From: Bacteroidota bacterium
GTDB lineage: Bacteria > Bacteroidota > Bacteroidia > Bacteroidales > JACABE01
Length of the DNA stretch: 64,000 nt
Assembly (NCBI GenBank): GCA_037133555.1
Contig: JBAXNW010000004.1
Coordinates: forward strand, 13,176 to 77,175
Direction of reading: 5' to 3'
Part shown: piece after piece, positions 2,446-44,939 of the stretch
Layout: each line of letters opens with the position of its first letter
Position numbering within the stretch: the stretch's first letter is position 1
Made by a program: the position numbers and the translations under genes
Notes under the pieces: model-generated
Told to the model about the DNA's origin: nothing
Seen by the model: the letters and a program-made list of their open reading frames with translations, nothing else
Databases searched by the model: none

Positions 2446-2520
2446 TACAAACAGAAGGGAATCAATTATCAGTGAGCAGTGGTAGAGAAATAAGAGACGA
2501 AAAGCGATACGTTCATATAA

Positions 2521-2550
2521 TTTTGTTATGCTGAACAAAGTGAAGCATCT
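2521..2550 (+). repeat. Hairpin module H (solo copy)
   Basis: ttttgttATGCTgaacaaagtgaAGCATct. Confidence 0.8.
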
Positions 2551-2591
2551 TATAAAGATTAAATGCTAAATTATTTAAATAACTGATAAGC

Positions 2592-10100: not shown

Positions 10101-10782
10101 TGCAAAGAATATCCCTAACAAAAGGGTCATCGGTATCGAAAACACAGGTAAAAAATATCAAATTCTGGTGGTAGACGATAAAGATGAAAACCTGAAAGTA
10201 GTTGTTAAATTGCTGCAATGGGTAGGTTTCGAAACGATGGAAGCTGTGAATGGACAAGATGCCCTGGAAAAATTTGAAAAAGGCAGGCCTGATCTTATTC
10301 TAATGGATATGCGTATGCCGATTATGGATGGTTTTGAAGCCTCCCGTTTGATAAAATTAACCGAAAAAGGCAAGCTAACACCCATTGTTGCCCTTACTGC
10401 CAGCTCTTTTGAAGATGAACGAAAAAAAATAAAATCCTTGGGTTTGCAAGGCTATATCCGTAAACCATTCAGAGAAGCAGAGTTGTTTAATACCCTTGCA
10501 GGAATTCTCGGAATTCAATATATTTATGAAGATGAAAAGCCTTCGATGCTGAAAAAATATAGTTTGAACGAAACAGGCATTAAACAGGATGTTGCAAAAT
10601 TATCTTCTGACTTGCGGTCTCAGATGTTAGATGCAATTGTACTGGCAGATATTGAACTATTGATCGATCATATTAAAAGTATCCAAAAAGAACATCCTGA
10701 ATTAGCAGATTACTTAATTACACTAGCCAATAATTACGATTACAATTACTTACAACAATTATTAAATAATAAAAAACCATAA
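7162..10782 (+). CDS. Membrane-bound CHASE-type hybrid sensor histidine kinase (TM, extracytoplasmic domains, PAS, HisKA, HATPase_c, REC, conserved C-terminal extension)
   Basis: Hydrophobic segments at the N-terminus, near aa 215-240 and near aa 570-590. CHASE-like block: [38 protein letters not shown]. The transmitter is a close paralogue of 3746..7066 ([30 protein letters not shown]). Confidence 0.9.
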   Translation: [1206 protein letters not shown]

Positions 10783-10792
10783 AAATAAAAAA

Positions 10793-11902
10793 ATGAACAA
10801 TATAGCATTACATCCGGTCAGATACAATATCTTAATTGTAGACGATATCCCTACCAACCTTAAAATACTGGACGGTATTTTGAAAGGAGATGGTTATAAA
10901 GTACGTCCTGTTCCCAATGGTTTGCTTGCACTGCAAGCTGCAGAAAAAGAAAGGCCTGACCTTATCCTCCTCGACATCATGATGCCCGAAATGGATGGTT
11001 ACGAAGTCTGCCGCAAATTAAAAGAAAACCCTGAATTAGTAGATGTTCCGGTTATATTTATCAGCGCTTTAAACGACACCCAGGATATTGTCAAGGCATT
11101 TACTTCAGGTGGTGTCGATTACATTACCAAGCCTTTTCAAGCCGAAGAAGTCAAAGCACGGGTAGCTACACATCTAAAAATTTGCCGTCAAAACCTGGAA
11201 TTAAAGCAACTCAATGCCGAAAAAGATAAGTTCTTTTCTATAATTGCCCATGATCTAAGAAGTCCTTTCACAGGATTTTTAGGTCTTACTCAGATTTTGG
11301 AAGAACAATTATCAGATTTAAGCAAAGAAGAAATTCTGGATTTTTCTACAAGTATGAGAAAATCAGCTACTAAACTTTTCACCTTGCTCGAAAATCTGCT
11401 GGAATGGGCAAGAATACAGCAAGGTCTCATCCCTTTTACACCCGAAACGGTTCAATTGTTAGCAGTTGTAAACGAAAGCATTGGCATGATAAAGGAAAGT
11501 GCCAGCCTTAAACAAATTGAAATCATTTACGACATCCCCGATGAAATCACCGTTGTTACCGACACCAACATCCTACAAACCATTTTACGCAACCTGGTCT
11601 CAAATGCAGTGAAATTTACATCCAAAAACGGAAGTATCATTATTTCGGTTCTGCCTCAAAACGATGGTTCGATGGTGATTTCAATTAAAGATACTGGAAT
11701 TGGAATGAGCCAACATATCATGGATAACCTTTTCCGCATTGACGTCAACACCAGCCGTAAAGGCACTGACGGAGAAACAAGTACAGGCTTGGGACTTATT
11801 ATCTGCAAGGATTTTATCGAAAAACACGGAGGTAAACTCTGGGTCGAAAGCGAAGTAGGAAAAGGAAGCAGTTTTAATTTTACATTGGGAAGTAAAAATT
11901 AG
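10793..11902 (+). CDS. Response-regulator / histidine-kinase fusion (REC-HisKA-HATPase_c)
   Basis: REC: [35 protein letters not shown]. H-box: [13 protein letters not shown]. ATPase: [38 protein letters not shown]. Starts 10 nt after the upstream hybrid kinase stop. Confidence 0.92.
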   Translation: [369 protein letters not shown]

Positions 11903-11914
11903 GAGAAGGAGGGT

Positions 11915-12016
11915 GACTAAGAGACTATGAGACTATGAGACTATGAGACTGAGAGAACGAGGGAGCGAAGATGAGTCTAAGAGACTGAGGGAGCGAATGA
12001 GCGAAAAGGAGAGTCA
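11915..12016 (+). repeat. Octamer tandem array (GAGACTAT/GAGACTGA/GGGAGCGA family)
   Basis: Starts 13 nt after the kinase stop. gagactat occurs 3 times, followed by degenerate 8-mers. Confidence 0.9.
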
Positions 12017-12024
12017 AAGATTTT

Positions 12025-12196
12025 CTTTTGTCAAACTGAACGAAGTGAAGTAGCTCATAAAAGGAATTTAGGCTATAGGCGTTTAGGCTTTAAGAAATAG
12101 GAATTGTAAATAACACTAAAAAATAAATCGAAGAACCTCCCTTCTCCATTTAGAGCCTGTTCCGATTTATCGGAAAGAAGGGATGGGGATGAGGTT
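12025..12196 (+). repeat. Composite module, copy 1 (hairpin module H + TAGGC words + long imperfect hairpin)
   Basis: Aligns base-for-base with 25230..25400, with about 4 substitutions and 1 indel by eye. Confidence 0.92.
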
Positions 12197-12294
12197 CAAA
12201 AATTAAGAATCCAATCCTAAAGCCTAAAACCCTATAGCCTAATTAATTAGAAAAATACTTTTTGCAAAATAAGAAAATTACAAAATGAATAGTT

Positions 12295-15135
12295 ATGAAT
12301 TATACACTAGAAGAATTAATTGACCTTCCACTGCTTCAGAATTTGCAGGTGAAGCTGAATGTAATTTATACATTTCCATCTGCAATTATTGATAATAATG
12401 GCAAAATATTAACTGCTGTGGCATGGCAGGATATCTGTACAAAATTTCACCGAATAAATCCTGAATGCGAAAAGGAATGCATCAAAAGTGATCAGTATAT
12501 ATATGCACATCTTCAAGAAGCGAATCCAGCGGTAAGTTATCAATGTCCTCATGGACTGGTCGACAATGCAACACCCATTATAATTGACGGAAAACATTTA
12601 GGCAATTTTTTTACAGGTCAGTTTTTTTTAGAGAAACCCGATTTGGATTTTTTTAGGAAACAAGCAAAAAAATATGGCTTCGACGAAACAGCTTACCTGT
12701 CAGCTGTAAAAAAGGTTCCTGTCTGGAGCAAAGAAAAGCTTGCACAATACCTTGATTTTATTAAAGGCTTTATCGAGATTATTGCTGGGATTGGTTTAAA
12801 AAACTTAAAAGAGAAAGAGAATAACCTGGAATTAAAAAAAATCCAGGAAAGAAATGATGCCATTATTCTGAATACCTCAGATTGGATATGGGAATTAGAT
12901 GAGAATGGAAAATACAGTTATTGTTCCAATAAGATAGAGCAAATTTTAGGATATACAGTTGAAGAATTGATAGGCTCGTCACCTTTTGATCTAATGCCAC
13001 CCGATGAAAGTGAAAGGGTATTCTCAATTTTTCAAAACATTGCAGAAAACAAACTACCCATTGTTGATTTGGAGAATTGGAACGGCCATAAAGACGGACA
13101 CAAAGTTTGCTTATTAACGAATGGATTTCCTGTATTGAATGAATCAGGCGAAATTAAAGGATGGAAAGGTGCTGACAAAGATATTACAGATCGTAAACTT
13201 GCCGAATTAGTTAATAAACAGCATCATGAATTACTTTTAAAACTTTCGGAACAAGTACCCGGTGTTATTTACCAATACAGATTGTTTGAGGATGGTCGTT
13301 CTTGCTTTCCTTACTCAAGTTCTGGAATGAACGATATTTACGAAGTTTCTCCGGATGATGTAAGAGAAGATGCCACGCCTGTATTTGGGCGACTTCACCC
13401 TGATGACCTTGACATGATTTCAGCATCGATCTTTGAATCAGCTCGCACACTTCAGCATTATTACAGTGAGTTTCGGGTAGTGCTTCCCCGTCAGGGTTTG
13501 CGTTGGCGTTTTTGCAATGCAGTACCCGAACGTTTGGATGACAACTCTACCCTCTGGCATGGAATTATTTACGATATCACCGACCGTAAATTATCAGAAG
13601 AAAAACTTCAGGTGAGTGAAAATCGCTATCACAACATCTTTGATCAGGCAAACGAAGGCTTGTTAATAATGACCAAAGAAGGAAAAATTTCTGAAGTTAA
13701 CCTCGCATTTGCCATTATGCATGGCTATAGTTTAGAGGAGCTTAAATCAATGGACATTCAAAATCTGGATGTCCTCAGAGAATCAACCATGAAAGAACGT
13801 AGCGAAATAATAGCACGAATAGAAAGAGGTGAAGTACAACGTTTTGAAGTGGAACACTACCATAAAGATGGCCACATTTTCCCCCTCAGTGTTACCACAA
13901 GTAAAATCAATATCGGTAATCAGGAGTTCTATTTAGCCTTCCATCAGGACATCACCCAGCTTAAACAATCAGAAAATGAACTTATCGAAGCCAAAGAAAA
14001 AGCCGAAGAAAGCAACAAGCTGAAAACAGCTTTTCTGAATAATATTTCTCATGAAATCCGTACACCCTTTAATGGTATTCTTGGGTTTTTATCAATTCTC
14101 CAGAACGAAGTGCTCAGTCATCAGGAAAGAGAAGAGTATACCGGTATCATTAATAAAAGTGCCAAACGCTTAATGAACACCATCAACGATATTGTTGAAA
14201 TATCAAAAATACAGGCTGGGCAATTGAAATTAACAAGTTCCAACATCAACATCAGCAGCTTACTATTTGAACTCAGCTACTATTTTAAACGCGAAGCCGA
14301 AAACAAGGGCTTACTATTCAGGACCTTGAATGAATTACCTGATCCTAACTCATTTATTAACACTGATAATATTAAACTCAATAAAATACTTTCAATACTG
14401 CTGGAAAATGCAATTAAATTTACAAAATCTGGAAGTATAGAATTGGGTATTTGTCAAAAAGGCGAAAACCTTGAGTTTTTTGTGAAAGATAGTGGTATTG
14501 GTATTCCCGATAACAAAAAAGTTTTAATTTTCGAACGTTTCATGCAGGCAGATGTATCAGATACGCGGAATTTCGAAGGATCGGGCTTAGGCCTTTCTAT
14601 CGCAAAAGCTTATGTAGAAACCATGGGTGGAAAACTGAGTTTCGAAAGTGATGAAGCTCAGGGCTCCATATTCTATGTCAGTTTTCCATATGCTGATCTT
14701 AATCCTGAAAAAAAACAGGCTCAGCAACTTTTAATGTCAAAGACCATTAAAAAGAACCTTAAAAAAATGGACCATCTTAAAATACTCATAGCCGATGATG
14801 ACGAAATTTCAGAAATATTTATTAAACTGGCTGTCAAAGAGATATGCAAAGAAGTTTTTATAGCAAGAAACGGAACAGAAAGTATAGCGCAATTACACCT
14901 TCACCCAGATATTGATCTGGTAATTATGGATATAAAAATGCCCATTCTCAATGGTTACGAAGCTACCCGAAAAATCAGGCTTTTTAACAGTAAGGTGGTA
15001 ATTATTGCACAAACTGCCTTTGCAATGGTAGGTGACCGAGAAAAAACAATAGAAGCTGGTTGCAACGACTATATTGCGAAACCCTATAAAAAGGATGAAT
15101 TCTTGGCCGTAATCAGGAAGTATTTTGGAAATTAG
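12295..15135 (+). CDS. PocR-like/PAS hybrid sensor histidine kinase with C-terminal REC
   Basis: Cys-rich N-terminal sensory block resembling PocR (WQDICTKFHRINPECEKECIKSD..YQCPHGLVDNATPIIIDGKHLGNFFTGQF). Three PAS-like blocks. H-box FLNNISHEIRTPFNG and C-terminal REC are paralogous to 745..2445. Confidence 0.9.
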   Translation: MNYTLEELIDLPLLQNLQVKLNVIYTFPSAIIDNNGKILTAVAWQDICTKFHRINPECEKECIKSDQYIYAHLQEANPAVSYQCPHGLVDNATPIIIDGKHLGNFFTGQFFLEKPDLDFFRKQAKKYGFDETAYLSAVKKVPVWSKEKLAQYLDFIKGFIEIIAGIGLKNLKEKENNLELKKIQERNDAIILNTSDWIWELDENGKYSYCSNKIEQILGYTVEELIGSSPFDLMPPDESERVFSIFQNIAENKLPIVDLENWNGHKDGHKVCLLTNGFPVLNESGEIKGWKGADKDITDRKLAELVNKQHHELLLKLSEQVPGVIYQYRLFEDGRSCFPYSSSGMNDIYEVSPDDVREDATPVFGRLHPDDLDMISASIFESARTLQHYYSEFRVVLPRQGLRWRFCNAVPERLDDNSTLWHGIIYDITDRKLSEEKLQVSENRYHNIFDQANEGLLIMTKEGKISEVNLAFAIMHGYSLEELKSMDIQNLDVLRESTMKERSEIIARIERGEVQRFEVEHYHKDGHIFPLSVTTSKINIGNQEFYLAFHQDITQLKQSENELIEAKEKAEESNKLKTAFLNNISHEIRTPFNGILGFLSILQNEVLSHQEREEYTGIINKSAKRLMNTINDIVEISKIQAGQLKLTSSNINISSLLFELSYYFKREAENKGLLFRTLNELPDPNSFINTDNIKLNKILSILLENAIKFTKSGSIELGICQKGENLEFFVKDSGIGIPDNKKVLIFERFMQADVSDTRNFEGSGLGLSIAKAYVETMGGKLSFESDEAQGSIFYVSFPYADLNPEKKQAQQLLMSKTIKKNLKKMDHLKILIADDDEISEIFIKLAVKEICKEVFIARNGTESIAQLHLHPDIDLVIMDIKMPILNGYEATRKIRLFNSKVVIIAQTAFAMVGDREKTIEAGCNDYIAKPYKKDEFLAVIRKYFGN

Positions 15136-15175: not shown

Positions 15176-15185
15176 CATTCATTTT

Positions 15186-15271
15186 CTTTTGTCATTCAGA
15201 GTGTTAGCGAGGAATCTCATTTATATAATTTTATTATACGAGATGCTTCACTACGTTCAGTATGACAAAGG
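15186..15271. repeat. Convergent pair of hairpin modules H (variant ATTC/GAAT on +, variant ATACT/AGCAT on -)
   Basis: cttttgtcattcagagtgttagcgaggaatctca at 15186..15219. gagatgcttcactacgttcagtatgacaaagg at 15240..15271. Confidence 0.85.
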
Positions 15272-15315
15272 AAAAAGCTTCTGTTCACTGTTTAATGATA
15301 AAGATAACCCAATCT

Positions 15316-17922
15316 ATGAATACAATCAAGCATTCCATATTTGCAGTAACCGGACTTTCGTGCAGCAATTGTGCACTTACTATCGAGACGAATGTAAGCA
15401 AACAAAAGGGTATTGAAGCTGCCACTGTTGATTTCGCCAGCGAAAAATTGTCGGTAAGTTTCGACACAACAGTTTTAGGCGAAAGCGATATTATCCATTT
15501 TATCCGTCAGCTAGGCTATGGCGTTGCCGTTGGCAAGCTTGATCTTCCACTCTTTGGTATGCTGGATACTACCGATGCCTTATCTTTAGAAAAAATGCTC
15601 CTCAAACAAAATGGTGTTTTGCACTGTAGCGTTAATTATGCTTCAGAACGTTGCTTACTCGAATACATCCCAGGTATGATCAGCGTTGCCGACATTGCTT
15701 CAGTAATCCACAAAGCAGGCTTCGACCTCGTTCAAGCAGATGGAACGGAAGATGCGGAAGATTTGGAAGCCAGCATCCGCAGTCAGGAACTTCGTAAGCA
15801 AAGAAACTTGCTGAAGACGGCAGTTGTATTTACCATTCCCCTCGTTGTATATAGCATGGCCCACGATTTTAATGTGGTCGGATTCAACTACGATCAATAT
15901 GTGATGCTTTTTGCAGCCACAATTGTCCAGTTTATTGCTGGATGGCAATTCTATGTGGGTGCATGGAAGAGTCTTCGCTTTGGCAGTGCGAATATGGATG
16001 TACTCATTGCAATGGGTTCATCGGCAGCCTATTTTTCGAGCCTGCTGGTTACCATAGGTTTCATCTCCAGCCCCCATGTATATTTCGAGACTGCTGCATC
16101 CATTATTACCCTCATCAGACTGGGCAAATACCTCGAGGCCCGCGCTAAGGGCAGAACCTCCGAGGCATTGAAAGCATTGATGGGTTTACGTGCCAAAACA
16201 GCAAAGGTAGTTCGAAATGGTATTGAATTGGAAATAAGCATCGAAGAAGTGGTGGTAGGCGACCTATTGATTGTTCGTCCTGGTGAAAAAGTAGCTGTGG
16301 ATGGTATTATCTGTGAAGGCCGTTCTGCATTTGAAGAATCGATGATCAGCGGCGAATCGATGCCGATAAGCAAATCAGCCGGTGATGAAGTAATTGGCGC
16401 CACCATCAACTGCGAAGGATTGATCAAATATGAAGCCACCAGGGTAGGCAAAGATACCTGCCTTTCGCAGATTATACAAATGGTACAGCAAGCCCAGGCC
16501 AGCAAAGCTCCCATTCAGAAACTAACCGACAAAATCGGGAAATACTTTGTCCCTATCATTATTGGTATCGCTTTGTTTACATTTATTGGATGGATGAATT
16601 TTGCTCAAGGCGAGTGGACCGCTGCCTTGATGAATGCCATTGCAGTGCTTGTCATCGCCTGCCCATGTGCAATTGGGCTGGCTACTCCTACAGCCATTAT
16701 CGTTGGCACATCCAAGGGTGCCGAAAACGGCATCTTATTCAAAAACAGCGAAATGCTTGAAAAAGCAGGAAAACTCAACATTGTGGTTCTCGACAAAACA
16801 GGCACTCTTACAATGGGAAAACCCGAAGTCAGCAATATTTTCCCACTTGAAGATAATACAAGCGATTATTTGCTTCACTTGGCAGGCAGTGCTGAGTTGG
16901 GATCAGAGCATCCTGTGGGCATTGCCATGGTAAAGGCAGCAAAAGAAAAAGGCTTGGTAGTTGTCAATCCCATGCAATTCCGATCATTTGGAGGTTTGGG
17001 TATACGTGCCATTGTAAATCATCAAACGGTATTGATTGGCAATCTACGGCTGATGCAGCAAGAAGGGGTTTCTACAGAGGCCATCCAAGCTGAAGTCATC
17101 AAAATGCAAAGCGAGGGAAAAACAGCCATGATAGTTGCGGTAAAACAGCCCGACAGTGCTAATCCTTGCCGACCTATCGGAATCATTGCTGTGGCTGACA
17201 GGGTGAAAGCTGGCGCAAAAGAAGCCATAGCAGAATTACGTCAACTTGGTATGAATATTGTGATGATTACCGGAGATAATCAGCATACAGCAGAAGCTGT
17301 TGCCCGTGAATTAGGTATCGATCAGGTATTGGCCGAAGTGATGCCCGCCGATAAAGCCAAAGCTATCAAAAAGCTACAACTTGCCGTCAGCCCCGGCAAT
17401 TATAAACTTTCCACAGTAGCCATGGTGGGTGATGGCATCAACGATGCCCCGGCATTAGCACAAGCCGATGTAGGTATCGCTATTGGAAGCGGTACTGATA
17501 TAGCCATGGCAGCTGCCGGCATCACACTCGTGAGTGGTGAACTTTCAGGTGTTGGTCGTGCGATTTCATTATCCAGAGGCACTTCACAAACCATCGTTCA
17601 AAACCTGATGTGGGCTTTGTTATACAATGTGGCCCTCATTCCCATTGCAGCAATGGGAATGCTGAATCCTATGTTTGCAGCTGGAGCCATGGCATTCAGC
17701 TCTATTTTTGTGGTGAGCAACAGCCTTCGTTTGCGGGCTTACAAAGTGCAAAGTTTTGCAGCAAAAAAAACAATCTTTCGCCAAAGCATCGAACTGATAC
17801 CCCGAATATTGCTTCCTGCAGCAACGCTGGCTTTGCTCATTTTTCTAAGCATGCAATCGATGCCTGATAAATGCACCAAATCACCAAATCACCAAATCAC
17901 CAAATCAAAAAACAACAAATGA
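15316..17922 (+). CDS. copA: Heavy-metal (Cu+) translocating P1B-type ATPase
   Basis: HMA domain with GLSCSNC; CPC ([13 protein letters not shown]); DKTGTLT; [10 protein letters not shown]. Start moved to ATG 15316 (MNTIKHSIF..) because ATG 15262 lies inside an intergenic repeat module. The last ~15 codons read through an octamer array. Confidence 0.9.
17874..17905. repeat. Perfect octamer array (CACCAAAT)x4 inside the copA 3-prime end, upstream of the kinase start
   Basis: Four exact units at 17874, 17882, 17890 and 17898. Reverse complement of the GATTTGGT family seen at 37429 and 44687. Confidence 0.95.
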
Positions 17923-19388
17923 AAACAAAAAGAATCAAATGGATATATAGCTTATGGATACTACTGATTGTTTTATCTTATTCATGGAATTATTATATTG
18001 CAGAAAGCAATAACCAGAAAGTAGTTGAGAACAAAGCACGTTCTTTTTTTAGTCAGATTGTAGTTGCCCGATCGTGGAATTCAAAACATGGCGGAGTATA
18101 TGTTCCTGTGACAAAAGAAACACAGCCCAATCTTTACTTAATGGATTCGTTGAGGGATGTTACCACTATTGGAGGTTTGAAACTTACTAAAATTAATCCG
18201 GCTTTTATGACTCGCCAGATTTCAGAAATCAATAAAGTTGAAAATGATCTTCAATTTCACATTACCAGTTTAAACCCAATAAGACCCGACAATAAAGCCG
18301 ATGCCTGGGAAAACAAAGCCCTTAAATCATTTAGAAACGGTAAACATGAGTTGTTGGAATTGGTGGATGATGATTCCGTTGCTCAGTATCGTTATATGGC
18401 GGCTCTGGTTACCGAAAAGTCTTGTCTGAAATGCCATGCCGTTCAAGGCTATAATGAAGGCGATATCAGGGGTGGAATCAGTATTTCTTTTCCTTCACGG
18501 ATATACAAACAATCGGAAAACGCAAGGCTCTTTCATTTATTGATTGCTCATTTTCTCATTCTCATTGTTGGCTTATTTGGTATTTACAGCTATTTTAAAA
18601 TGGAACAACATCTCTTTACTATTATCCACGAAAAAAATCAAGAACTCGAATCTGATACCAAACTCTTGCGTCAAACCAACGAGGAATTATTGAAAATCAA
18701 TACCGAAAAAAATAAATTCTTTTCCATCATTGCCCATGATTTACGCAGTCCTTTCACCAGCTTTTTAGGGTTTACTCAAATTATGGTTGAAAAATCCCAA
18801 ACTATGTCGAAGGAAGAAGTTCAGAATTATGCTGTAAGTATGAGCAACTCTGCCAACAATCTTTACCTTTTACTAGAGAATCTACTGGAATGGGCATGCA
18901 TTCAGCAAGGATTGATACCTTTCAGTCCTGAACAAGCTAAATTGTATCCTATTGTAGACAGTAGCATTGCCATGGTTGTGGATATTGCTGCCAAAAAAGA
19001 GATTGAAATTAAAACAAGCATTCCTTATAGTTTGGAGGTTGTTGCCGATAACATGATGCTCCAAACCATCATCCGCAACCTGGTTTCGAATGCAGTAAAA
19101 TTCACACCCAAAAAGGGAAACATTTACATTTCGACTAAGGTCCTCCCCGATCAAAGCATCGAAATATCCGTTCAAGATACAGGTATTGGAATGAATAAGA
19201 AAATGATAGATACAATTTTTCGTATGGATGTCAATACCAACCGCGCGGGTACAGATGGAGAAGCCAGCACAGGTCTGGGACTGATCATCTGCAAGGATTT
19301 TATCGAAAAACACGGAGGAAAACTTTGGGTTGAAAGTGAAGAAGGCAAAGGAAGTACGTTTAAATTTACGCTGGCAGCGAAGAATTAA
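17919..19388 (+). CDS. Sensor histidine kinase with a DUF3365-like (putative heme-c, CxxCH) extracytoplasmic domain
   Basis: Signal/TM segment: [21 protein letters not shown]. Also [21 protein letters not shown] and CLKCH. A second TM is followed by [13 protein letters not shown] and [35 protein letters not shown] 17919 overlaps the copA stop (ATGA). An alternative upstream ATG at 17871 lies in the octamer array. Confidence 0.85.
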
Positions 19389-19400
19389 AAATTATGAAAA

Positions 19401-19479
19401 AGCGAGAGCGCAAAAGGTAGACTAAGAGACTAAGAGACTAAGAGACTGAGAGACTGAGGGAGCGAGAGAGCGATGGAGC
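19401..19479 (+). repeat. Octamer tandem array (GAGACTAA/GAGACTGA/GGGAGCGA family)
   Basis: gagactaa x3, gagactga x2, then gggagcga-like units. Starts 13 nt after the kinase stop. Confidence 0.9.
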
Positions 19480-19611: not shown

Positions 19612-19617
19612 TTCATT

Positions 19618-19649
19618 GAGATGCTTCACTTTGTTCAGCATGACAAAAG
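19618..19649 (-). repeat. Hairpin module H (reverse orientation)
   Basis: gagATGCTtcactttgttcAGCATgacaaaag. Confidence 0.85.
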
Positions 19650-19920
19650 AAAATGGCACGACAAAAGAAAACGATGCTATGATAATTTAAAGGATAATAA
19701 GCAAAGCTATATAAATCATCAATTTAAAAATAAATCGGACGAAGCTTAAAATTATATTATCTTTGACTATAATTACTGAACGATATATATACAGATTAAA
19801 GATTGAAGCTAGTGGAAACGGAATTTGCTTATCCATTTTGTACAGCTAGTGAAATAGTTTAATAACGTGATAACCATTAAAATGCTTACAGCTTAATAAC
19901 CTAATCATGCAACTTAAATC

Positions 19921-22875
19921 ATGAAAAAAGAAAAAAAGACAAACCCCACTCTATTACGCCAAAAAGCTGAGGAATTATTGAAAGAGAAAAAAATCAGTAC
20001 TTCTTTTGCCCATCCTAATCAACTGTCTGAAAATGATTTGTTAAAACTCATTCATAATTTGGAAGTGCATCAAATTGAGTTGGAATTGCAAAACGAAGAA
20101 CTTTTACTGGCAAAAGCTGCTGAAAAACAGCTTACAGCTAACTATATTGAATTGTACGATTTTGCGCCTACACCTTATTTTACACTTTCTAAAGAAGCTA
20201 AAATAATTAGACTAAATCTGAGTGCAGCTCAGCTTTTAGACAAAAACAGACATTCATTGATCAACAGTAGTTTTGCTTTTTTTGTTGCTGAGCATGAAAA
20301 GCTTGTTTTCATTGAGTTTTTCGATAAAATAATGAATGATTACAAAACAAGCAATTGTGAACTCAGCCTTTCAGTAAATACTCATCCTCCAATTTTTGTT
20401 CGTTTAAATGCTACGCTCAACCAAAACAGGGATGAATGCCTTATTACTGCAGTGGATCTCAGCGAACACCACGCTTACATTGAAGCACAAAGGCAAAAAG
20501 AAAATTTGCATCTCTCAAGGCTGCACTTGCTGGAATTTGCTGTTAAGCATACGCTGAATGAATTGCTAGAAGAAATGCTCAACCTAGCCGAAATCCTGAC
20601 TGGCAGTTTAATAGGCTTTTCCCACTTTGTAGAAGATGATCAGCAAACCCTTAGGCTGCAGAATTGGTCCAGCCGTACCAAAAAAGAATTCTGCAGGGCC
20701 GAAGCGATAAATATGGAATATAAAATTGAGAAGGCGGGCATTTGGGTCGACTGTATCCGTCAGGGCCATGCTGTCATCCACAACGACTATGCTTCTCTTA
20801 CCTATAAAAAAGGGCTGCCCCCAGGACATGCCACTTTAATTAGGGAAATGGTAGTGCCTGTCATTCGCAACGGTAAAATAAAAGCCATAGTGGGGGTGGG
20901 AAATAAACCAACAGACTATGTTAACAAAGATGTTGAAACAATTACCTTGTTAGCTGACCTTGTATGGGATATCTGCGAACGCAAAAAGGCTGAAGAAGAA
21001 TTGCTTACCTCAAACTGGAGGATGGAGAACATCATAGAGGCTTCTTTTATCGGAACCTGGCAGTGGAATGTCCAAACCGGAGAAACAATATTTAATGAGC
21101 TGTGGGCTGAAATTATAGGTTATACCCTTGATGAGTTGGCGCCTATCAGCATCATGACCTGGCAAGCATTGGTCCATCCTGAAGATTTAAAGCAATCCAA
21201 CAAATTATTGGAGCAACATTTTGCTGGCGAACTACCTTATTACGATTTCGAATGCAGATTAAAACACAAAGATGGCCACTGGGTATGGATCCGCGACCGC
21301 GGTAAGGTAATTAGCTTCAGCAGTGATGGCAAACCCTTGATAATGTTTGGCACACATAGCGACATCAACCAACGCAAACAGGCAGAAAAAACCTTAATAG
21401 AAAGAGCCAAAATATTTGCTATGTTTATGGATAATTCACCCATTTATTCATTTATTAAAGAAGTAAAACCTGACGAAAGTCGTGTACTAAGAGCTTCCAA
21501 GAATTTTAAAGAAATGATTGGCATAGCGGGTGAAGAAATGGAAGATAAAACCATGCATGAACTCTTCCCCCCCGAATTGGCAACTAAAATTACAGCCGAC
21601 GATTGGTCGGTTGTTACTGGCGGTGAGGTATTTAAAATAGATGAAGAAATGAATGGCAGAAAGTATTCAACCATTAAGTTCCCCATTCACTTAGAAGATA
21701 AAACTCTTTTGGCAGGTCATAGCATCGACGTTACCGACCGCTTAAAGGCAGAAGCATCAGTGCGCCAAAGTAAAGAACAATACGATAAACTGGTTGAAAA
21801 TATCCCTTTAGGTGTGGGTGTTGTAGTTACTAAAGCTGATGCTTCCTTTAAATTCGAGTTTCTAAGTCCGAGAATAGCTGAAATTCTCAATCAAAGTATT
21901 GAAAGTTTGTATGCTGATGCGAATGCAATCACTAAAAATATGCATCCTGATGATAAAAACAACTTTGCAAAATCCTTTCGTGAAAGTATACAGCAAAAAT
22001 GTAATTTTGAATGGCAAGGACGCTTCCTGATTGAGGGAAAGACAAAATGGCTGTTTATCTTCGCAATACCTGAACTACAGCCTGAAAACGATGAAATTTT
22101 ATGGAATGGAATCTTAACTGACATTACGGAAACCATTTTATCGGATATTGAAATAAAAGAAACGAATGCTAAGCTTCAAAAAGTCAATATCGAAAAAGAT
22201 AAATTTTTCTCTATCATCGCCCACGACCTGAGGGGTCCTTTGAGTAATTTTATGGGACTTACCAAAATTATGGCAGAATCCTTATCGAGTTTATCTTTTG
22301 AAGAAATTGAAAAGTTTGCTAACAGTATGAAAAATTCGGCCAGCAACCTCTACCGTTTGTTGGAAAACTTGCTGGAATGGGCAAAAATTCAGCAAGGTTT
22401 AATCCCTTTCAATCCAAAATTGAATCCATTGTGGGTGATTGTTGACGAAAGTGTAGAAATGATACTAGAAGCTGCTGAAAAAAAAGAAATTAAAATAGCT
22501 TATAATTTCTCTTCCGAAATTGAGGTTTTTGCTGACAGCAACAGCCTACATACCATCTTCCGAAATCTTATTTCAAATGCCATCAAATTTACACACAGAG
22601 GTGGCAACATTGAGATTTCGGCTCAACCTAACAGTGATCACAACCTTGAAATATCGGTTAAAGATACAGGTATTGGAATGAGCCAGGAGATGATAATAAA
22701 TCTTTTCCTGATTGATATGGAAACCAACCGCAAAGGCACCGAAAGTGAACCCAGCACGGGTCTGGGTGTATTTATCTGTAAGGATTTTATCGAGAAACAC
22801 GGTGGAAAATTATGGGTTGAAAGTGAAGTAGGCGTTGGAACTACTTTTTACTTTACTCTTCCTATTAGCTATTAA
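19921..22875 (+). CDS. Cytoplasmic GAF/PAS multi-sensor histidine kinase
   Basis: GAF-like block: [42 protein letters not shown] blocks: [36 protein letters not shown]. H-box: [13 protein letters not shown]. ATPase: [38 protein letters not shown]. Confidence 0.9.
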   Translation: [984 protein letters not shown]

Positions 22876-22876
22876 T

Positions 22877-22916
22877 AAGGATTTTAGACTGTAGGCTTTT
22901 AGGCTTTAGGAATCAG
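22877..22916 (+). repeat. TAGGCTTT-family word array (left arm of the gap between the kinase and recJ)
   Basis: aaggattttagactgtaggcttttaggctttaggaatcag, starting 2 nt after the stop. Confidence 0.85.
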
Positions 22917-23001
22917 TTTCTTGTGATCAGTTAGCAGTAAACAATGTATTGAGGTCTGAATTAGGTTGACCATTTTAGAATTCGTCTTTTTTTGACCTTG
23001 A

Positions 23002-23158
23002 CTTTTGTCATTCACAACGAAGTGAAACATATCAACCAGTTCTTTTGTCATGCTGAACGAAATGAAGCATCTCAATCAGTTCTTTTGCCATGCTGAACAA
23101 AGTGAAGCATCTCAACCTATTAATTTGAGATTCCTCACTTCGTTCGGAATGACAAAGC
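23002..23158. repeat. REP/BIME-like cluster: three direct hairpin modules H at about 40-bp phase plus one inverted variant
   Basis: Direct copies at 23002..23034 (degenerate), 23041..23074 and 23081..23114. Inverted ATTCC/GGAAT variant at 23127..23158. Confidence 0.9.
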
Positions 23159-23174
23159 AAAAATTTGTCTTAAT

Positions 23175-23223
23175 TTCTTAAAGCCAACAGTCTATTCTCC
23201 TAATGTCTAAATTCCTAATTTCC
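23175..23223 (-). repeat. Reverse-complement TAGGC/AGGAATT word array (right arm of the same gap)
   Basis: ttcttaaagcc is the reverse complement of ggctttaagaa. cctaatgtctaaattcctaatttcc is the reverse complement of ggaaattaggaatttagacattagg. Confidence 0.75.
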
Positions 23224-24971
23224 TATTCAAACCTGATATCTTTCACATTCAACTGCAGGCTTATTTTCCCGTTCCATTCGTTTTCTTCGATATGATAGGA
23301 TATTGAGAAGGGAAATCCTTTTTGTATCGCATCAAAATAATCGCCCTGCTGAAATGCAATGCCCGAAATAGGGTAACTGGCCACATCGGGACTGATTACA
23401 GAAAGCTTAATATGGTTGTTTCCTACTATACGTGAGTATCCGGCATCTTTGACATTGTCGGTCTGAAATACTGGTGACATATTTCCGGGTCCGAAAGGGG
23501 CAAATTGTTTAAGAATATTATAAAATTTGGTATTGATATCTTTCAGTTGTATGCTGTCGTCGATTTCAATTTCGGGAGTTTGCATTTCAATGGTAATGCT
23601 TTTGCTGACAACTTCTTCAAACTGAGTGCGGAAAGCTTCCAGATTTTCGGGCTTTAACGATAAGCCGGCTGCATATTTATGTCCCCCAAAATGCTCCAAC
23701 AGTGGGCTGCAGGCTTCGATGGCATCGTAAATATCGAAATCTTTCACACTACGGGCAGAGCCAGTAATCAAACCATTGGATTGTGTGAGTACCACGGTGG
23801 GACGGTAATACTCTTCTGTTAAGCGCGAAGCAACAATGCCAACCACACCTTTGTGCCATTCTTTGTTGAAGATAACGGTGCTTTTGCTCTTCATCAAAAA
23901 TTCGTCGTTTTTGATAAAATCGAGGGCCTGCTGTGTTGCAGTGGCATCCAGACTTTTTCGTTCGGTATTGTTATTGTTGATGAGTTCACCAAAAACCATG
24001 GCTGCTTCCAGATCTTTACATATCAGCAGTTCTACAGAGCTGCGACCCGATTCGATACGACCAGCAGCATTGATGCGGGGACTGATCAGAAAAACAAGGT
24101 CGTTAATCGTAAGTCCGCGTTTAAAAAACAATTCATTTTCGACGGTATAGAGTTCATTTTTGCATACATTGCTGTATCTCAAAACGGCTTCTATGCCGGG
24201 ACGTGGATTAGAATTAATCAGCTTCAACCCATAATAAGCCAGAATTCTGTTTTCCCCTGTAATGGGAACTATATCCGCAGCAATACTGATAGCAACCAAA
24301 TCGAGGTATTTTTCAATTTGTTCAAAAGGGAAATTATGATGCTGAGCATAGGCCTGAACAATTTTAAACCCAATACCACAACCTGACAATTCATCATAAG
24401 GATAAGTGGAGTCTAATCTTTTGGGGTCCAGTATAGCAACTGCATCTGGTAATATATCACCCGGGCGGTGATGGTCACCGATGATAAAATCGATATGTTT
24501 TGCTTTGGCATAGGCAATGTGTTCAGTAGCTTTGATGCCACAATCTAATGCAATGATCAGTTTAAAGCCATTTTCCTCGGCAAAATCTATACTTTTATAA
24601 GAAATTCCGTAGCCTTCCGAATAGCGGTCGGGAATATAAAAATCGACCCCTTCGTAATTTTCTTTCAAAAATGAATAAACCAGGGCTACAGCACTTGTTC
24701 CATCCACATCATAATCGCCGTATACCAGTATTTTTTCATTCTGTTGAATGGCTGTATCTATCCGTTGAATGGCCTTATCCATGTCTTTCATCAGAAAAGG
24801 ATCGTGGAGGGCAGTAAGCTGAGGGCGGAAAAAAGATTTGGCTTCATCGTAAGTCGAAATCCCTCTTTGAGCCAATAAATTAGCCAGATGAATATCAATA
24901 TTCAATGCCTGCTGTAAGTCTGCTATTATTTTAGTATCCCCTTTTTTCTTATAAACCCACCTCTTTTCCAT
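23223..24971 (-). CDS. recJ: Single-stranded-DNA-specific exonuclease RecJ
   Basis: DHH motifs: VYGDYDVDGTSA, IALDCG, IIGDHHRPG. DHHA1 motif: GGHKYAAG. Length 582 aa. Confidence 0.93.
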   Translation of the reverse strand: MEKRWVYKKKGDTKIIADLQQALNIDIHLANLLAQRGISTYDEAKSFFRPQLTALHDPFLMKDMDKAIQRIDTAIQQNEKILVYGDYDVDGTSAVALVYSFLKENYEGVDFYIPDRYSEGYGISYKSIDFAEENGFKLIIALDCGIKATEHIAYAKAKHIDFIIGDHHRPGDILPDAVAILDPKRLDSTYPYDELSGCGIGFKIVQAYAQHHNFPFEQIEKYLDLVAISIAADIVPITGENRILAYYGLKLINSNPRPGIEAVLRYSNVCKNELYTVENELFFKRGLTINDLVFLISPRINAAGRIESGRSSVELLICKDLEAAMVFGELINNNNTERKSLDATATQQALDFIKNDEFLMKSKSTVIFNKEWHKGVVGIVASRLTEEYYRPTVVLTQSNGLITGSARSVKDFDIYDAIEACSPLLEHFGGHKYAAGLSLKPENLEAFRTQFEEVVSKSITIEMQTPEIEIDDSIQLKDINTKFYNILKQFAPFGPGNMSPVFQTDNVKDAGYSRIVGNNHIKLSVISPDVASYPISGIAFQQGDYFDAIQKGFPFSISYHIEENEWNGKISLQLNVKDIRFE

Positions 24972-25153: not shown

Positions 25154-25222
25154 GAGATTTGGCGAGAGAGCGAAATGGAGACTGAGAGACTGAGAGAGCG
25201 AGGGAGCGAGGGAGCGATAAGC
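25154..25222 (+). repeat. Octamer tandem array (GAGACTGA/GGGAGCGA family)
   Basis: ..ggagactgagagactgagagagcgagggagcgagggagcgataagc. Confidence 0.88.
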
Positions 25223-25229
25223 TCATTTC

Positions 25230-25400
25230 CTTTTGTCATACTGAACGAAGTGAAGTATCTCATAAAAGGAATTTAGGCTATAGGCGTTTAGGCTTTAAGA
25301 AATAGGAATTGTAAATAACACTAAAAAATAAATCGATAACCTCCCTTCTCCTTTTAGAGCCTGTTCCGATTTATCGGAAAGAAGGGATGGGGATGAGGTT
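25230..25400 (+). repeat. Composite module, copy 2
   Basis: Near-identical to 12025..12196. Lies in the recJ/rnr divergent gap, 57 nt upstream of the rnr ATG. Confidence 0.92.
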
Positions 25401-30978: not shown

Positions 30979-31031
30979 AAGTGAGTTAAAAGTTTATAAA
31001 GTTTGTTAGGTTCATAAAATCTTTAATAATT

Positions 31032-31063
31032 GGGTTATTGGGTTATTGGGTTATTGGGTTAAT
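31032..31063 (+). repeat. Octamer array (GGGTTATT)x3 + GGGTTAAT
   Basis: Lies between the MBOAT start and the SGNH gene stop. Confidence 0.9.
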
Positions 31064-37428: not shown

Positions 37429-37465
37429 GATTTGGCGATTTGGAGCTTAGGTGATTTAGCGATTT
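37429..37465 (+). repeat. Octamer array (GATTTGGC/GATTTGGA/GATTTAGC family)
   Basis: gatttggcgatttggagcttaggtgatttagcgattt, upstream of the glyQS start. Confidence 0.85.
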
Positions 37466-39421: not shown

Positions 39422-39451
39422 AAATCACCAAATCACTAATTCTCCAAATCC
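39422..39451 (-). repeat. Octamer-type array (reverse complement of the GATTTGGT/GATTTGGA family) spanning the secA stop codon
   Basis: aaatcaccaaatcactaattctccaaatcc. The secA stop (39436..39438) and its last 4 codons lie inside it. Confidence 0.75.
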
Positions 39452-43853: not shown

Positions 43854-43864
43854 TGCCAGATGTT

Positions 43865-43892
43865 GGTTATTGGTTATTGGTTAATGGTTATT
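43865..43892 (+). repeat. Heptamer array (GGTTATT x2, GGTTAAT, GGTTATT)
   Basis: Lies between the adenosyltransferase start and the ABC ATPase stop. Confidence 0.88.
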
Positions 43893-43901
43893 GACCACTG
43901 A

Positions 43902-44627: not shown

Positions 44628-44686
44628 TTTCTGTGTTTATTTTGAATGACAAAACTACTAAAAATTTTATGATAAAGTTAAATTTT

Positions 44687-44742: not shown

Positions 44743-44750
44743 AAAGATTT

Positions 44751-44865
44751 CTTTTGTCATGCTTAACGAAGTGAAGCATCTCATTCATCTCTTTTGTCAT
44801 GCTGAACGAAGTGAAGCATCTCATTTAATATTATGAAATTCCTCGCTGTTGCTCGGAATGACAAT
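44751..44865. repeat. REP/BIME-like cluster: two direct hairpin modules H at 40-bp phase plus one inverted variant
   Basis: Direct copies at 44751..44783 and 44791..44823 (ATGCT/AGCAT stems). Inverted ATTCC/GGAAT variant at 44835..44865. Confidence 0.9.
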
Positions 44866-44939
44866 AAAAAACTATTTAAAAATAGGAATAGAAATGACGC
44901 CTCTTTCCCTCTTTTACAATCAATAAAACGCCTTTTTTA

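Follow-up and report, generated by a model that had tools for sequence, protein, structure and literature searches.

Our preferred reading, to which we assign a probability of about 0.65, is that the short hairpin module recurring in the window (the whole stretch of DNA analysed, 64 kb) is a TGTC-tagged REP, a subtype of the CGTC-tagged REP superfamily, and acts as a DNA hairpin ligand of a trans-acting protein. Few non-coding features are as common in bacterial genomes as REPs and, to our knowledge, the GTAG class is the only one with a known enzyme (RAYT).

A first-pass annotation had placed 13 modules in the window, and all 13 are present at those positions and on those strands (Table 1). 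Allowing up to 3 mismatches, the consensus gave seven matches in the window, and a degenerate core pattern gave 11; the expectation from shuffles is 0 in both cases. As an independent test, we used a covariance model (R1) made from 94 copies, all of them from other genomes, to search the window with filters off. R1 returned 13 matches with E values from 2.6e-12 to 0.026, which are exactly the annotated set, and the next-best match had an E value of 0.11. The three stem variants described in the annotation (ATGCT/AGCAT, ATTCC/GGAAT, and ATACT/AGTAT) were also seen. Its statement that copies always lie outside CDS hinges on the real start of ORF 15262..17922, as the first ATG of this mechanically called ORF falls inside the minus-strand module at 15236 (ATGACAAAGG).

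Table 1. Modules in the 64-kb window, with window coordinates and scores from covariance model R1.
Position	Strand	Feature	Support
2519..2555	+	Single module, GTTATGCT...AGCATCTT	R1 33.9 bits, E 6.5e-7
12024..12060	+	Single module, decayed stem AAACT/AGTAG	R1 29.4 bits, E 9.5e-6
15185..15222	+	Left half of head-to-head dimer, ATTCA/GGAAT type, 4-nt loop	R1 32.2 bits
15236..15272	-	Right half of head-to-head dimer, ATACT/AGCAT type	R1 27.1 bits
19614..19650	-	Single module	R1 51.5 bits, E 1.7e-11
23001..23037	+	Degenerate unit 1 of 40-bp tandem array	R1 16.2 bits, E 0.026; Tandem Repeats Finder period 40
23041..23077	+	Unit 2 of 40-bp array, ATGCT/AGCAT	R1 48.4 bits; Tandem Repeats Finder
23081..23117	+	Unit 3 of array, left partner in head-to-head heterodimer	R1 43.6 bits
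23123..23159	-	Inverted ATTCC/GGAAT module, right heterodimer partner	R1 45.7 bits
25229..25265	+	Single module, ATACT/AGTAT	R1 54.6 bits, E 2.6e-12
44750..44786	+	Second 40-bp array, unit 1	R1 44.5 bits; Tandem Repeats Finder period 40, 97% matches
44790..44826	+	Second array, unit 2, left heterodimer partner	R1 54.2 bits; 0 mismatches to consensus
44831..44868	-	Inverted ATTCC/GGAAT module, GC..GC inner pairs, 4-nt loop	R1 28.4 bits

The module at 2519..2555 is flanked by two plus-strand genes, for a hybrid histidine kinase and a FIST protein, and that at 23123..23159 lies in the spacer of convergent genes for a histidine kinase and RecJ. We also note that the module at 12024..12060 is followed by a TTTAGGC module and then by a 65-nt hairpin repeat, and that the GACAAAAGAAAA end of the module at 19614..19650 is partly duplicated at 19651-19680.

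The annotation had implied a scope within Bacteroidota, which proved too narrow. With a search pattern that left the stem positions free, the matches listed place the module at no fewer than 120 loci, which span about 20 phyla, although most of the hosts outside Bacteroidota are MAGs, for which the phylum assignment may be in error; the carriers listed include Bacteroidota and Bacillota isolates and one closed Nitrospirota genome. Cultured carriers are Dysgonomonas hofstadii DSM 104969, Pedobacter frigoris, Sedimentibacter hydroxybenzoicus, and Lutibacter agarilyticus. A 28-nt core is nearly identical in Saccharibacteria, Bacteroidota, Clostridia, Planctomycetota, and Aquificota, and the distribution is patchy across this wide taxonomic range. 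No match was found in 5,426 E. coli genomes, and the plasmid collection, the phage collection, and IMG/VR gave one, zero, and two matches, respectively; the module is not plasmid- or phage-borne. Searching the literature for the literal DNA consensus and its would-be peptides returned only chance primer matches, and 'GCGAAGC' combined with repeat keywords returned nothing relevant. Tandem Repeats Finder detected a period of 40 at 23002-23117 (2.9 copies, 85% matches) and at 44750-44825 (1.9 copies, 97% matches), and two arrays of such regular period could point to an origin by simple local duplication, or to a CRISPR-like array, limited to this island. This explanation is refuted: the linkers are just 8 nt long, copies of both orientations are scattered across 42 kb next to unrelated housekeeping genes, and the module recurs at the loci of other genomes described above.

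The invariant parts of the module are TGTC-AT…GA…GA…AT-CTC (an example of the tag-strand sequence is TGTCATTCTGAGCGAAGCGAAGAATCTC). An unpaired 5' TGTC tag precedes a stem that opens with A-T and T-A and continues with three pairs that covary freely; next comes a tandem G·A/A·G mismatch, which is invariant and has a 5'-Y-GA-R-3' context on both arms; two further covarying pairs then close a loop of 3 nt (sometimes 4 nt), mostly G/A-N-A, and the 3' end is an unpaired CTC tail. Only 7 of the nine stem positions are therefore Watson-Crick pairs, and the predicted fold (5 bp, a 2x2 loop, 2 bp, and a GAA loop) is the one drawn in the annotation. We scored positional conservation in 93 partner copies not chosen by the pattern, which gave values of.87,.97,.95, and.96 for the tag (T6, G7, T8, and C9),.98,.95,.92, and.90 for the first stem pairs (A10, T11, A29, and T30),.99, 1.0,.96, and.94 for the G·A positions (G15, A16, G24, and A25), and.90 and.86 for the tail (C31 and T32). 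The A-T/T-A first pairs occur in all 13 window copies except the decayed one at 12024. Among 208 G·A-type copies, the tag is TGTC in 190 and CGTC in 10, the CTC tail is present in 170, and the commonest geometry is a 9-position stem with a 3-nt loop (138 copies), the 4-nt loop being next (30 copies). The tandem G·A/A·G occupies stem positions 6-7 in 185 of 189 copies; the C(GNA)G loops among the 189 are GAA (74), GCA (33), and GTA (14), and the commonest variant reads GCGAAGC in its inner part. Conservation of the Y-GA-R context is 95-99% at positions 14, 17, 23, and 26.

A tandem G·A in Y-GA-R context is the sequence rule for sheared tandem G·A pairs in DNA, and C(GNA)G triloops are the rule for hyperstable DNA mini-hairpins such as d(GCGAAGC). 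The sequence of the module obeys both rules, and the sheared pairs and mini-hairpins, which are physico-chemical motifs and not a genetic element, are probably present in it. By nearest-neighbour energies, a single hairpin has -5.5 kcal/mol as RNA (z = -0.5, not unusually stable) and -2.2 kcal/mol as DNA; the special stability that we infer for the DNA hairpin comes from literature knowledge that is absent from the nearest-neighbour model.

The annotation had proposed, from the stem variants of the window, that selection acts on pairing, and strong covariation in the independent cross-genome sample bears this out. Of the 125 matches listed for the free-stem pattern, 112 were fully paired, with at least 13 pair combinations, and 96% of the cells at unconstrained stem positions were paired across the listed matches. 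Double-change cells numbered 127, compared with 35.9±4.5 in shuffles (0 of 500 shuffles reached the observed value), and sliding the stem partners against each other dropped pairing to 13-51%. Such covariation also speaks for a cis-acting structured RNA, in which the single hairpins, or the long hairpin of a dimer, would be transcribed at gene 3' ends and either protect the mRNA upstream from 3'-5' exonucleases or serve as operon punctuation; E. coli REPs have been shown to act in these ways. However, among 1323 stem cells, G·T occurred 16 times and A·C 19 times, so there is no excess of wobble pairs.

The genomic setting of the modules bears on the same question. Module spacers were convergent in 29, co-directional in 65, and divergent in 14 cases (background: 76, 273, and 87), so that convergent spacers make up 27% for modules versus 17% for the background; further, modules lie mostly downstream of genes, and their median distance to the preceding stop codon is 61 nt. 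A role at RNA 3' ends would likewise predict that convergent and co-directional spacers are enriched, to which can be added that a good fold is predicted for the 23081-23160 dimer (-13.7 kcal/mol as DNA, z = -4.0) and that Di Nocera et al. argue, in the text of PMC3733652, that most REPs are transcribed. Against this role, modules may point with or against transcription (of the singletons located in co-directional spacers, 21 are opposite and 7 the same), the copy at 25229..25265 lies in the divergent promoter spacer between RecJ and RNase R, and the single hairpin has the unremarkable z value given above. An intrinsic terminator was rejected because the T-run lies before the hairpin and nothing U-rich comes after it. 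Rfam yielded no relevant family: the whole window had no match at gathering thresholds, and the 401-bp stretch 22850-23250, searched at E values up to 10, gave only sub-threshold microRNA-type hairpins. A generic hairpin role would also hardly explain one 28-nt core across about 20 phyla. We therefore consider the RNA reading improbable; the lack of wobble excess, the mixed orientation, the copy in a divergent spacer, the missing U-run, the Y-GA-R context, and the GNA loops together favour a DNA-level hairpin element. Reading the module as a promoter (TTGTCA...N18...ATCTCA), or its GA pairs as a hammerhead or K-turn, was rejected from the sequence for not fitting the consensus geometry, and GC skew was uninformative for tying orientation to replication, since skew simply tracks gene orientation in the window.

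Across genomes, modules occur as singletons (95 of 167 clusters), as tandem arrays, in which head-to-tail order is common, and, above all, as head-to-head dimers with the tags outside; head-to-head (+-) clusters outnumber the reverse order (-+) by 49 to 14. The window itself contains three head-to-head dimers (15185/15236, 23081/23123, and 44790/44831), the first being the pair that the annotation had described as facing each other. Both 40-bp arrays are followed by one inverted ATTCC/GGAAT copy, so the layout of direct copies followed by an inverted variant is shared by the two loci as had been stated. The 40-bp phase is local to the source genome, a Clostridia MAG (L023) having a like layout with a period of 43, and the REP/BIME-like character proposed for the layout is upheld in that direct-plus-inverted arrangements with different stem types recur in other phyla. 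Among 27 cleanly aligned dimers, 17 were heterodimers, whose partners mostly differ at 2, 4, or 6 positions (14 of the 17), and pairing within modules reached 96.7%, versus 73.7% for complementarity between the arms at the same positions.

These dimers could be taken for MITEs, deletion derivatives of a DDE-type IS with modules as terminal inverted repeats and mobilised by its transposase, given an inverted-repeat layout with a short variable spacer and a wide, patchy taxonomic spread that suggests horizontal transfer. We regard this as very improbable. At 55 dimers, direct repeats of 3-5 nt, as expected of target-site duplications, were no more frequent than expected by chance (0-3 of 55 whatever the offset); singletons and head-to-tail arrays are common; and the arms often differ by compensated changes that keep their own hairpins, which recognition of terminal inverted repeats would not need. 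Further, genes between module clusters are ordinary, with no module-flanked transposase in about 1 Mb of loci, and the module is almost absent from plasmids, phages, and IMG/VR.

Strain comparisons showed wholesale replacement in one case and shared occupancy in another. The array at 44.75 kb gives way to unrelated sequence in a related strain (L130) in which both flanks are conserved, and this replacement leaves no clean insertion boundary. L124 and L125 each carry modules at all three of the sites at which they were compared; no pair of a clean single-module insertion and its empty site was found in these comparisons. The search for a linked enzyme was negative in the loci covered. When the 2,548 ORFs of 120 loci were clustered all against all, no protein family turned up in more than 7 of these loci, and those that recur are generic (e.g. 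ABC ATPases). A Xer-like recombinase was considered as a partner and judged a chance neighbour, as it occurs at 4 loci only, 0.4-5.5 kb from the modules. The annotation had reported no RAYT in the window, and jackhmmer with E. coli RayT found no homologue there or in about 1 Mb of related loci (L001-L126); for the source genome, this covers the 81.7 kb read (the window plus extensions L124 and L126, on a contig of 105 kb).

The lack of a linked transposase, in the loci examined and in the text of PMC3733652, suits another reading, in which the module is a site recognised by a conserved host protein of DNA replication, repair, topology, or recombination, and not by a dedicated mobile-element enzyme; it would be spread by gene conversion and recombination and kept for chromosome organisation. 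The occurrence of one 28-nt core in about 20 phyla among the matches listed is also consistent with such a site, and work cited in PMC6006769 describes binding of gyrase, Pol I, and IHF to the REP/BIMEs of E. coli. However, an essential role predicts more uniform presence than the patchy distribution observed, with none in the E. coli genomes and few in plasmid records; the source contig has 14 copies in about 55 kb (2.3-57 kb of the record) and none in the next 27 kb, and copy numbers differ widely among CGTC families according to the text of PMC3733652. We consider a host-protein site to have a low probability, similar to that of an RNA element.

For the preferred reading, a DNA hairpin ligand, we propose the following. 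The tag strand, when single-stranded, would extrude a compact hairpin, which together with its tag and tail would be bound by a candidate trans-acting protein, encoded away from the repeats, that copies, maintains, or homogenises them. By analogy with GTAG REPs and RAYT, this candidate may be a structure-specific ssDNA nuclease or transposase. Copies would be retained at sites where their cost is low, chiefly 3' of genes and in the gaps separating cistrons, and would turn spacers into recombination-prone, strain-variable mosaics; an effect on mRNA, such as 3' hairpin protection, would be secondary, if there is any. A stronger version, which we put forward tentatively and think unlikely to hold in full, is that the G·A-type TGTC module is the most widespread REP known, a 28-nt ssDNA hairpin that keeps its tag, tail, sheared G·A platform, and GNA triloop unchanged in about 20 phyla as the ligand of one candidate ssDNA-binding enzyme that is either horizontally mobile or universally conserved. 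If the module were the ligand of a single enzyme, finding this partner would end the 'orphan' status of the whole CGTC superfamily, dRS3 and RPEs included, and might bring to light a DNA-processing enzyme of a new, hairpin-specific class. A subtype so sharply defined is a good bait for a partner search by phylogenetic profiling or pull-down, since the tag, the tail, and the tandem G·A are invariant, the triloop is of GNA type, and the core is nearly identical across phyla. In practical terms, modules break MAG assemblies (contigs end at module sites), seed spurious small ORFs (they translate to ...RSEES... or ...NDK, or start MTK...), and mark spacers that are hypervariable between strains. 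The window itself is mostly clarified as carrying ordinary selfish or structural repeat DNA and not a new regulatory system.

The annotation had regarded the module as an unnamed family, and this claim to novelty is weakened by a match to a described one: the features that define the module also define the CGTC-tagged REP superfamily (families CGTC-1 to CGTC-4), published in 2013 (Di Nocera, De Gregorio & Rocco, BMC Genomics 14:522, PMC3733652). As described in the text of that paper, the superfamily includes Neisseria dRS3 and Rickettsia conorii RPE-4/RPE-6; its tag is CGTC, with TGTC and CCTC as accepted variants; its stem has 8-9 bp, the first two pairs being A-T and T-A; its loop has 4 nt in family 1 and 5 nt in families 2-4, with other lengths in some CGTC-1 and CGTC-3 hosts; and its short, unpaired 3' tail has the consensus CCA. 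Head-to-head dimers, often heterodimers, predominate; the elements sit between unidirectional and convergent ORFs; and they are catalogued in 5 phyla, with no associated or flanking transposase found. The module shares the tag variant, the A-T/T-A pairs, the head-to-head heterodimers, the spacer preference, and the lack of a flanking transposase. It differs from these text descriptions in having 7 Watson-Crick pairs plus an obligatory G·A/A·G instead of a fully complementary stem of 8-9 bp, a loop of 3 nt (occasionally 4) instead of 4-5 nt, a CTC tail, also of 3 nt, instead of CCA, and TGTC instead of CGTC as the rule, in about 20 phyla (among the matches listed) instead of 5. Judged on sequence features, then, the module is a TGTC-tagged REP and a structural subtype of the superfamily, set apart by the descriptions in the paper's text. 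The tandem-G·A/triloop architecture is apparently undescribed, as it is not among the four families in that text, where the pruning procedure dropped repeats with more than one stem mismatch; the subtype may nevertheless already be contained in the published set, for example in Kosmotoga/Mesotoga CGTC-3 elements with unusual loops. Perfect-stem CGTC-1/2-like REPs adjoin G·A-type modules at six loci (L034, L074, L093, L106, L109, and L110), and their tails there are CTG, CTT, CTC, or CCA.

The atypical REPs of RAYT subclass 2.6 (Bacteroidetes) and class 3 are also non-GTAG hairpin repeats found in Bacteroidota and other phyla, and we rejected them as the identity of the module because the sequences in Table S1 (e.g. 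GCTAGCGCGAGCGTCCCGCTCGTG and CCGAGCCGCGACTGTCAAGGAGCGGTTG) are unrelated to it (Quentin et al. 2018, PMC6006769). With the GTAG REPs, REPINs, and BIMEs of E. coli and Pseudomonas, the module has in common a short hairpin preceded by four unpaired nucleotides that serve as its 5' tag, the coexistence in one genome of stem subtypes that covary (Y/Z types in GTAG REPs), inverted dimers, intergenic mosaic clusters, and the lack of target-site duplication. The tag is GT[AG]G in GTAG REPs and TGTC in the module. GTAG REPs occur with RAYT (TnpA-REP), whereas no repeat-flanked RAYT was found for the module in the loci examined, and GTAG REPs co-diverge with their lineage-specific RAYT, whereas the sequence of the module is conserved across phyla.

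Direct reading of the window placed the TGTC-tagged hairpin module at all 13 sites (13/13) at which the first-pass annotation had listed it, on the same strands and with the same stem variants. The consensus at up to three mismatches gave 7 matches in the window and a degenerate form of the core gave 11, with 0 expected for either in dinucleotide shuffles. The strongest check on this set is R1, a covariance model trained on 94 module copies, all from genomes other than that of the window and thus independent of the window copies; with its filters off, the model picked out exactly those 13 sites in the window (E = 2.6e-12 to 0.026; next match, E = 0.11). The 40-bp spacing of the direct copies was recovered as period-40 arrays at both loci, each followed by one inverted copy of the ATTCC/GGAAT variant, and the two facing modules were also found (see the table); the copy at 23001 is degenerate. 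The claim that the modules lie outside coding sequence needs a qualification at one copy: the inverted module of the facing pair holds, at 15262, the first ATG (ATGACAAAGG, giving 'MTKE...') of a mechanically called ORF, 15262..17922, which is a P-type ATPase. We note that at other loci the same module end gives ORFs spurious 'MTK...' starts and peptides such as RSEESQ and ...RNDK. By nearest-neighbor energy, the single hairpin is not exceptional (RNA, -5.5 kcal/mol, z = -0.5; DNA, -2.2 kcal/mol) under models that encode no bonuses for sheared G·A pairs or GNA triloops.

Table. Repeat arrays and related features of the window
Feature	Window position	Detail
Period-40 module array	23002-23117	2.9 copies (Tandem Repeats Finder)
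Period-40 module array	44750-44825	1.9 copies (Tandem Repeats Finder)
Two facing modules	15185-15272	
7-8-nt tandem repeats	11915-12012, 17869-17907, 19419-19479, 25178-25217, 31029-31061, 37429-37465, 39422-39450, 43863-43893, 44695-44742	
~37-nt repeat	430-633 (tandem), 12054-12100, 22870-22916, 25259-25305	
~65-nt hairpin	12133-12197, 25337-25400	also L124 (contig extension), about 4470-4545
~180-nt composite	12020-12196 vs 25225-25400	90-97% identical
Cluster of paralogous hybrid histidine-kinase genes	1-23000	segments 70-80% identical
Paralogous kinase segments	5603-6697 vs 9325-10419	
Paralogous kinase segments	11192-11901 vs 18678-19387 vs 22165-22874	
Paralogous kinase segments	1246-2442 vs 13999-15126	
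Spacer polymorphic between strains	44628-44939	

A scan that took a single genome for each species of bacteria and archaea used the pattern TTTTGTCATNNNGAN{7,8}GANNNATCTCA, in which three stem pairs, the two inner pairs, and the loop are unconstrained. At least 120 loci matched, so the copies are not confined to this island as local duplication would have it. With taxa taken from record titles, the matches listed comprise many Bacteroidota (including isolates of Pedobacter, Lutibacter, Flagellimonas, Dysgonomonas, Spirosoma, Tenacibaculum, Winogradskyella, and Prevotella), Bacillota (including Sedimentibacter isolates), Saccharibacteria, Alpha-, Beta-, and Gammaproteobacteria, Desulfobacterota, Verrucomicrobiota, Planctomycetota, Acidobacteriota, Chloroflexota, Armatimonadota, Elusimicrobiota, Omnitrophota, Cloacimonadota, a closed Nitrospirota genome, Aquificota, Cyanobacteriota, Fibrobacterota, Caldisericota, Ignavibacteria, and Binatota. 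Two loci with unpaired stems (L002 and L095) are probable chance matches. Collections of plasmids, phages, and viral contigs almost lack the module, as does E. coli.

The three free outer pairs were all complementary in 112 of the 125 pattern matches listed, in at least 13 different combinations. In 94 ungapped sequences, standard pairs filled 96.0% of cells (80.4% in shuffles) and two-sided changes 127 cells (35.9±4.5 in shuffles), values reached by 0 of 500 shuffles; pairing fell to 13-51% when the 3' partner was shifted by 1-3 columns. Covariation is thus present, as the first-pass proposal that selection keeps the pairing demanded, and the module structure is real. Invariance was read from 93 further copies, mostly inverted partners of pattern matches and not selected by the pattern. 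Conserved in these were T-G-T-C-A-T, then G-A, then G-A, then A-T-C-T-(C) and, outside this ~28-nt core, a weak upstream T-run only. The pair preceding the G·A step has a pyrimidine in the 5' arm in 95% of copies and the pair following it a purine in 98%, with Y in 98% and R in 99% at the mirror positions of the 3' arm; both arms therefore read 5'-Y-GA-R-3', a context favoring sheared tandem G·A pairs in DNA. Of 189 distinct copies, 185 have GA/GA, and the loop is GAA in 74, GCA in 33, AAA in 20, and GTA in 14, usually with a C-G closing pair, and GCGAAGC is the most frequent inner heptamer among the pattern matches listed. C(GNA)G is a hyperstable DNA triloop, d(GCGAAGC) being an example.

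Modules are enriched in convergent spacers (27% vs 17% background) and depleted in divergent ones (13% vs 20%). This bias fits a role in RNA 3' ends, which therefore keeps some weight, but it is also compatible with tolerance of insertions. Against the RNA role, G·U-type mismatches on the tag strand (16) do not exceed A·C mismatches, the wobbles of the other strand (19; together less than 3% of 1323 stem cells), whereas a clear G·U excess is normal in structured RNAs. Further, modules occur in both orientations to transcription (singletons in co-directional spacers: 21 antisense, 7 sense), and the copy at 25229 lies between divergent genes. The T-run stands 5' of the hairpin and no U-run follows it, which rules out an intrinsic terminator, and no Rfam family matches the module. 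Overall, several results point to selection at the DNA rather than the RNA level.

The commonest multi-copy layout was the head-to-head dimer, forward then reverse with the TGTC tags outside (49 clusters vs 14 opposite). Heterodimers, whose partners have different stem types, made up 17 of 27 cleanly aligned dimers, and in 14 of the 17 the partners differed at 2, 4, or 6 of the ten variable stem positions, i.e. by whole compensated pairs. Within dimers, each module's own pairing was 96.7% compared with 73.7% inter-arm complementarity at the same positions, indicating that selection keeps the individual hairpins and not a long inter-arm hairpin, as already noticed in the window, where ATGCT/AGCAT and ATTCC/GGAAT types stand side by side. 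A direct array followed by one inverted copy of another type recurs elsewhere, for example in a Clostridia MAG (L023, period 43). Tandem arrays of the module's 5' part alone are frequent (L039, L056, and L064), and two stretches of the window, 19651-19680 and the GATTTTGT octamer run at 44695-44742, seem to be further cases of this kind. On the reverse strand of L039, from an Omnitrophota MAG, a putative cobalamin riboswitch and terminator lie just upstream of two truncated modules and a complete one, after which comes the downstream gene.

The window modules neighbor ordinary chromosomal genes (hybrid histidine kinases, FIST protein, P-type ATPase, RecJ, RNase R, and ABC ATPase), and the spacers of the kinase cluster hold most copies. 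Extensions were read from the 105-kb metagenome contig that contains the window (ENA ERZ4224321 NODE_196; window base 1 = record base 11600); Por_Secre_tail and CHU_C domains of genes in the extension mark the host as a Bacteroidota bacterium. The 9-kb upstream extension holds 1 further copy; R1 over window 45-64 kb, and a check of the next 8 kb downstream, gave none. Across the matched loci, no specific protein family recurs beside modules, the recurring families being generic, and the stretches between module clusters hold housekeeping genes. An iterative RayT-seeded search of all ORFs of at least 70 aa in the window and 126 loci found no homologue, in agreement with the earlier view of the window. 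A XerC/D-like tyrosine recombinase ORF lies 0.4-5.5 kb from modules in 4 of 120 loci (L001, L010, L106, and L112, two of them small Saccharibacteria genomes); with a rough expectation of about 1, we judged it a chance neighbor and not a linked enzyme. No 3-5 bp target-site duplication was found at dimers, a result that speaks against a DDE-type MITE and would fit either HUH-type ssDNA chemistry or the absence of any transposition; any mechanism beyond a protein-recognized ssDNA hairpin repeat is one that we infer rather than observe.

Two strains 96-98% identical in the region each carry modules at all three sites that they share, with point changes in the modules and strong differences in the surrounding simple repeats. 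At 44.75 kb, a related strain has the same flanking genes and ~330 nt of unrelated repeat-bearing sequence instead of the three-module array. In this strain (Logan SRR30676220) the replacing sequence carries a CGCGGAT-type repeat, and the AAATCAC octamer run is conserved along with both flanking genes; the comparison covered L128, L130, L132, and the ERZ1426829 contig. In another sample, the spacer is 463 nt vs 312 nt. Contigs of the MAG GCA_049315395.1 terminate exactly at module-bearing spacers (L125 ends at window 12025; L129 starts inside 44628-44700), and the module repeats fragment short-read assemblies. No clean insertion event was captured at module sites in the strain comparison. The replaced array, variable simple repeats, and contig breaks indicate that module spacers are hypervariable mosaics; they recall the mosaic intergenic regions of Neisseria, in which dRS3 is the central element.

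Other repeats share these spacers. Tandem repeats of 7-8 nt (GAGACTAA, GAGGGAGC, AAATCACC, ATTGGGTT, GATTTGGC, TTGGTTA, and GATTTTGT) fill them; unit and copy number both differ between the two strains (~96-98% identical; e.g. GAGACTAA/GAGATGAT in L124 vs GAGAGGGA x7 in L125), and several of the units are similar to the T-rich 5' end or the purine-rich 3' arm of the module. A second intergenic family, the ~37-nt 'AGGAATTTAGGCTATAGGCGTTTAGGCTTTAAG' repeat, varies in copy number between strains, directly adjoins a TGTC module at two places, 12025 and 25230, and also occurs a short way upstream of the 23002 array. The third, a strong ~65-nt hairpin (AACCTCCCTTCTCC...CCGATTTATCGG...GGGATGGGGATGAGGTT; RNA fold, -28.7 kcal/mol, z = -2.9) with an identical 39-mer common to its two window copies, precedes genes for a PocR-PAS histidine kinase, RNase R, and a second PAS kinase; it has no match in Rfam and may be either a leader element or simply one more palindromic repeat. 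The duplicated ~180-nt composite joins TGTC module, TTTAGGC module, and 65-nt hairpin, and its two copies lie upstream of genes unrelated to each other: copying extends to whole mosaic blocks and is not limited to single modules.

The module family is real and the REP/BIME analogy of the first-pass annotation proved right, but the module is not outside any named family. Several of its features match those of the CGTC-tagged REPs, a superfamily defined beside the classical GTAG REPs by Di Nocera, De Gregorio and Rocco (2013; PMC3733652). The text of that paper describes short unpaired tails (consensus CCA), mostly head-to-head dimers with tags outside, heterodimers common in CGTC-2 and CGTC-3, and locations between unidirectional or convergent ORFs; the superfamily takes in Neisseria dRS3 and Rickettsia RPE-4/RPE-6 and is described from five phyla, among them Bacteroidetes (Gramella forsetii), Chlorobi, Spirochaetes, and Thermotogae. 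The authors' pruning, as given there, dropped repeats with more than one stem mismatch and would have removed the G·A type, the subtype with a tandem G·A/A·G mismatch inside the stem and a short triloop; Figure 2 of the paper may nonetheless already include it. Canonical perfect-stem CGTC elements (e.g. CGTC-ATTCCCGC-gtat-GCGGGAAT-CTT and CGTC-ATTTCCAG-cttga-CTGGAAAT-CTG) share loci with the G·A type, some directly abutting it (L034, L074, L093, L106, L109, and L110). Atypical REPs of RAYT subclass 2.6 (Bacteroidetes) and class 3 were rejected as the identity of the module, their listed sequences being different (Quentin et al. 2018, PMC6006769). The analysis adds the definition of the G·A/triloop subtype with its Y-GA-R rule, the evidence for selection at the DNA rather than the RNA level, and the demonstration of an almost identical core in about 20 phyla among the matches listed, without a linked enzyme. 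Compared with CGTC REPs as described in PMC3733652, the module is alike in its tag, first pairs, presence of a tail, dimers, location, and lack of a transposase, and is set apart by its obligatory tandem G·A step, 3-nt loop, CTC tail, and a tag that is as a rule TGTC, not CGTC. We conclude that the module family is a member, more precisely a structural variant, of this already described superfamily.
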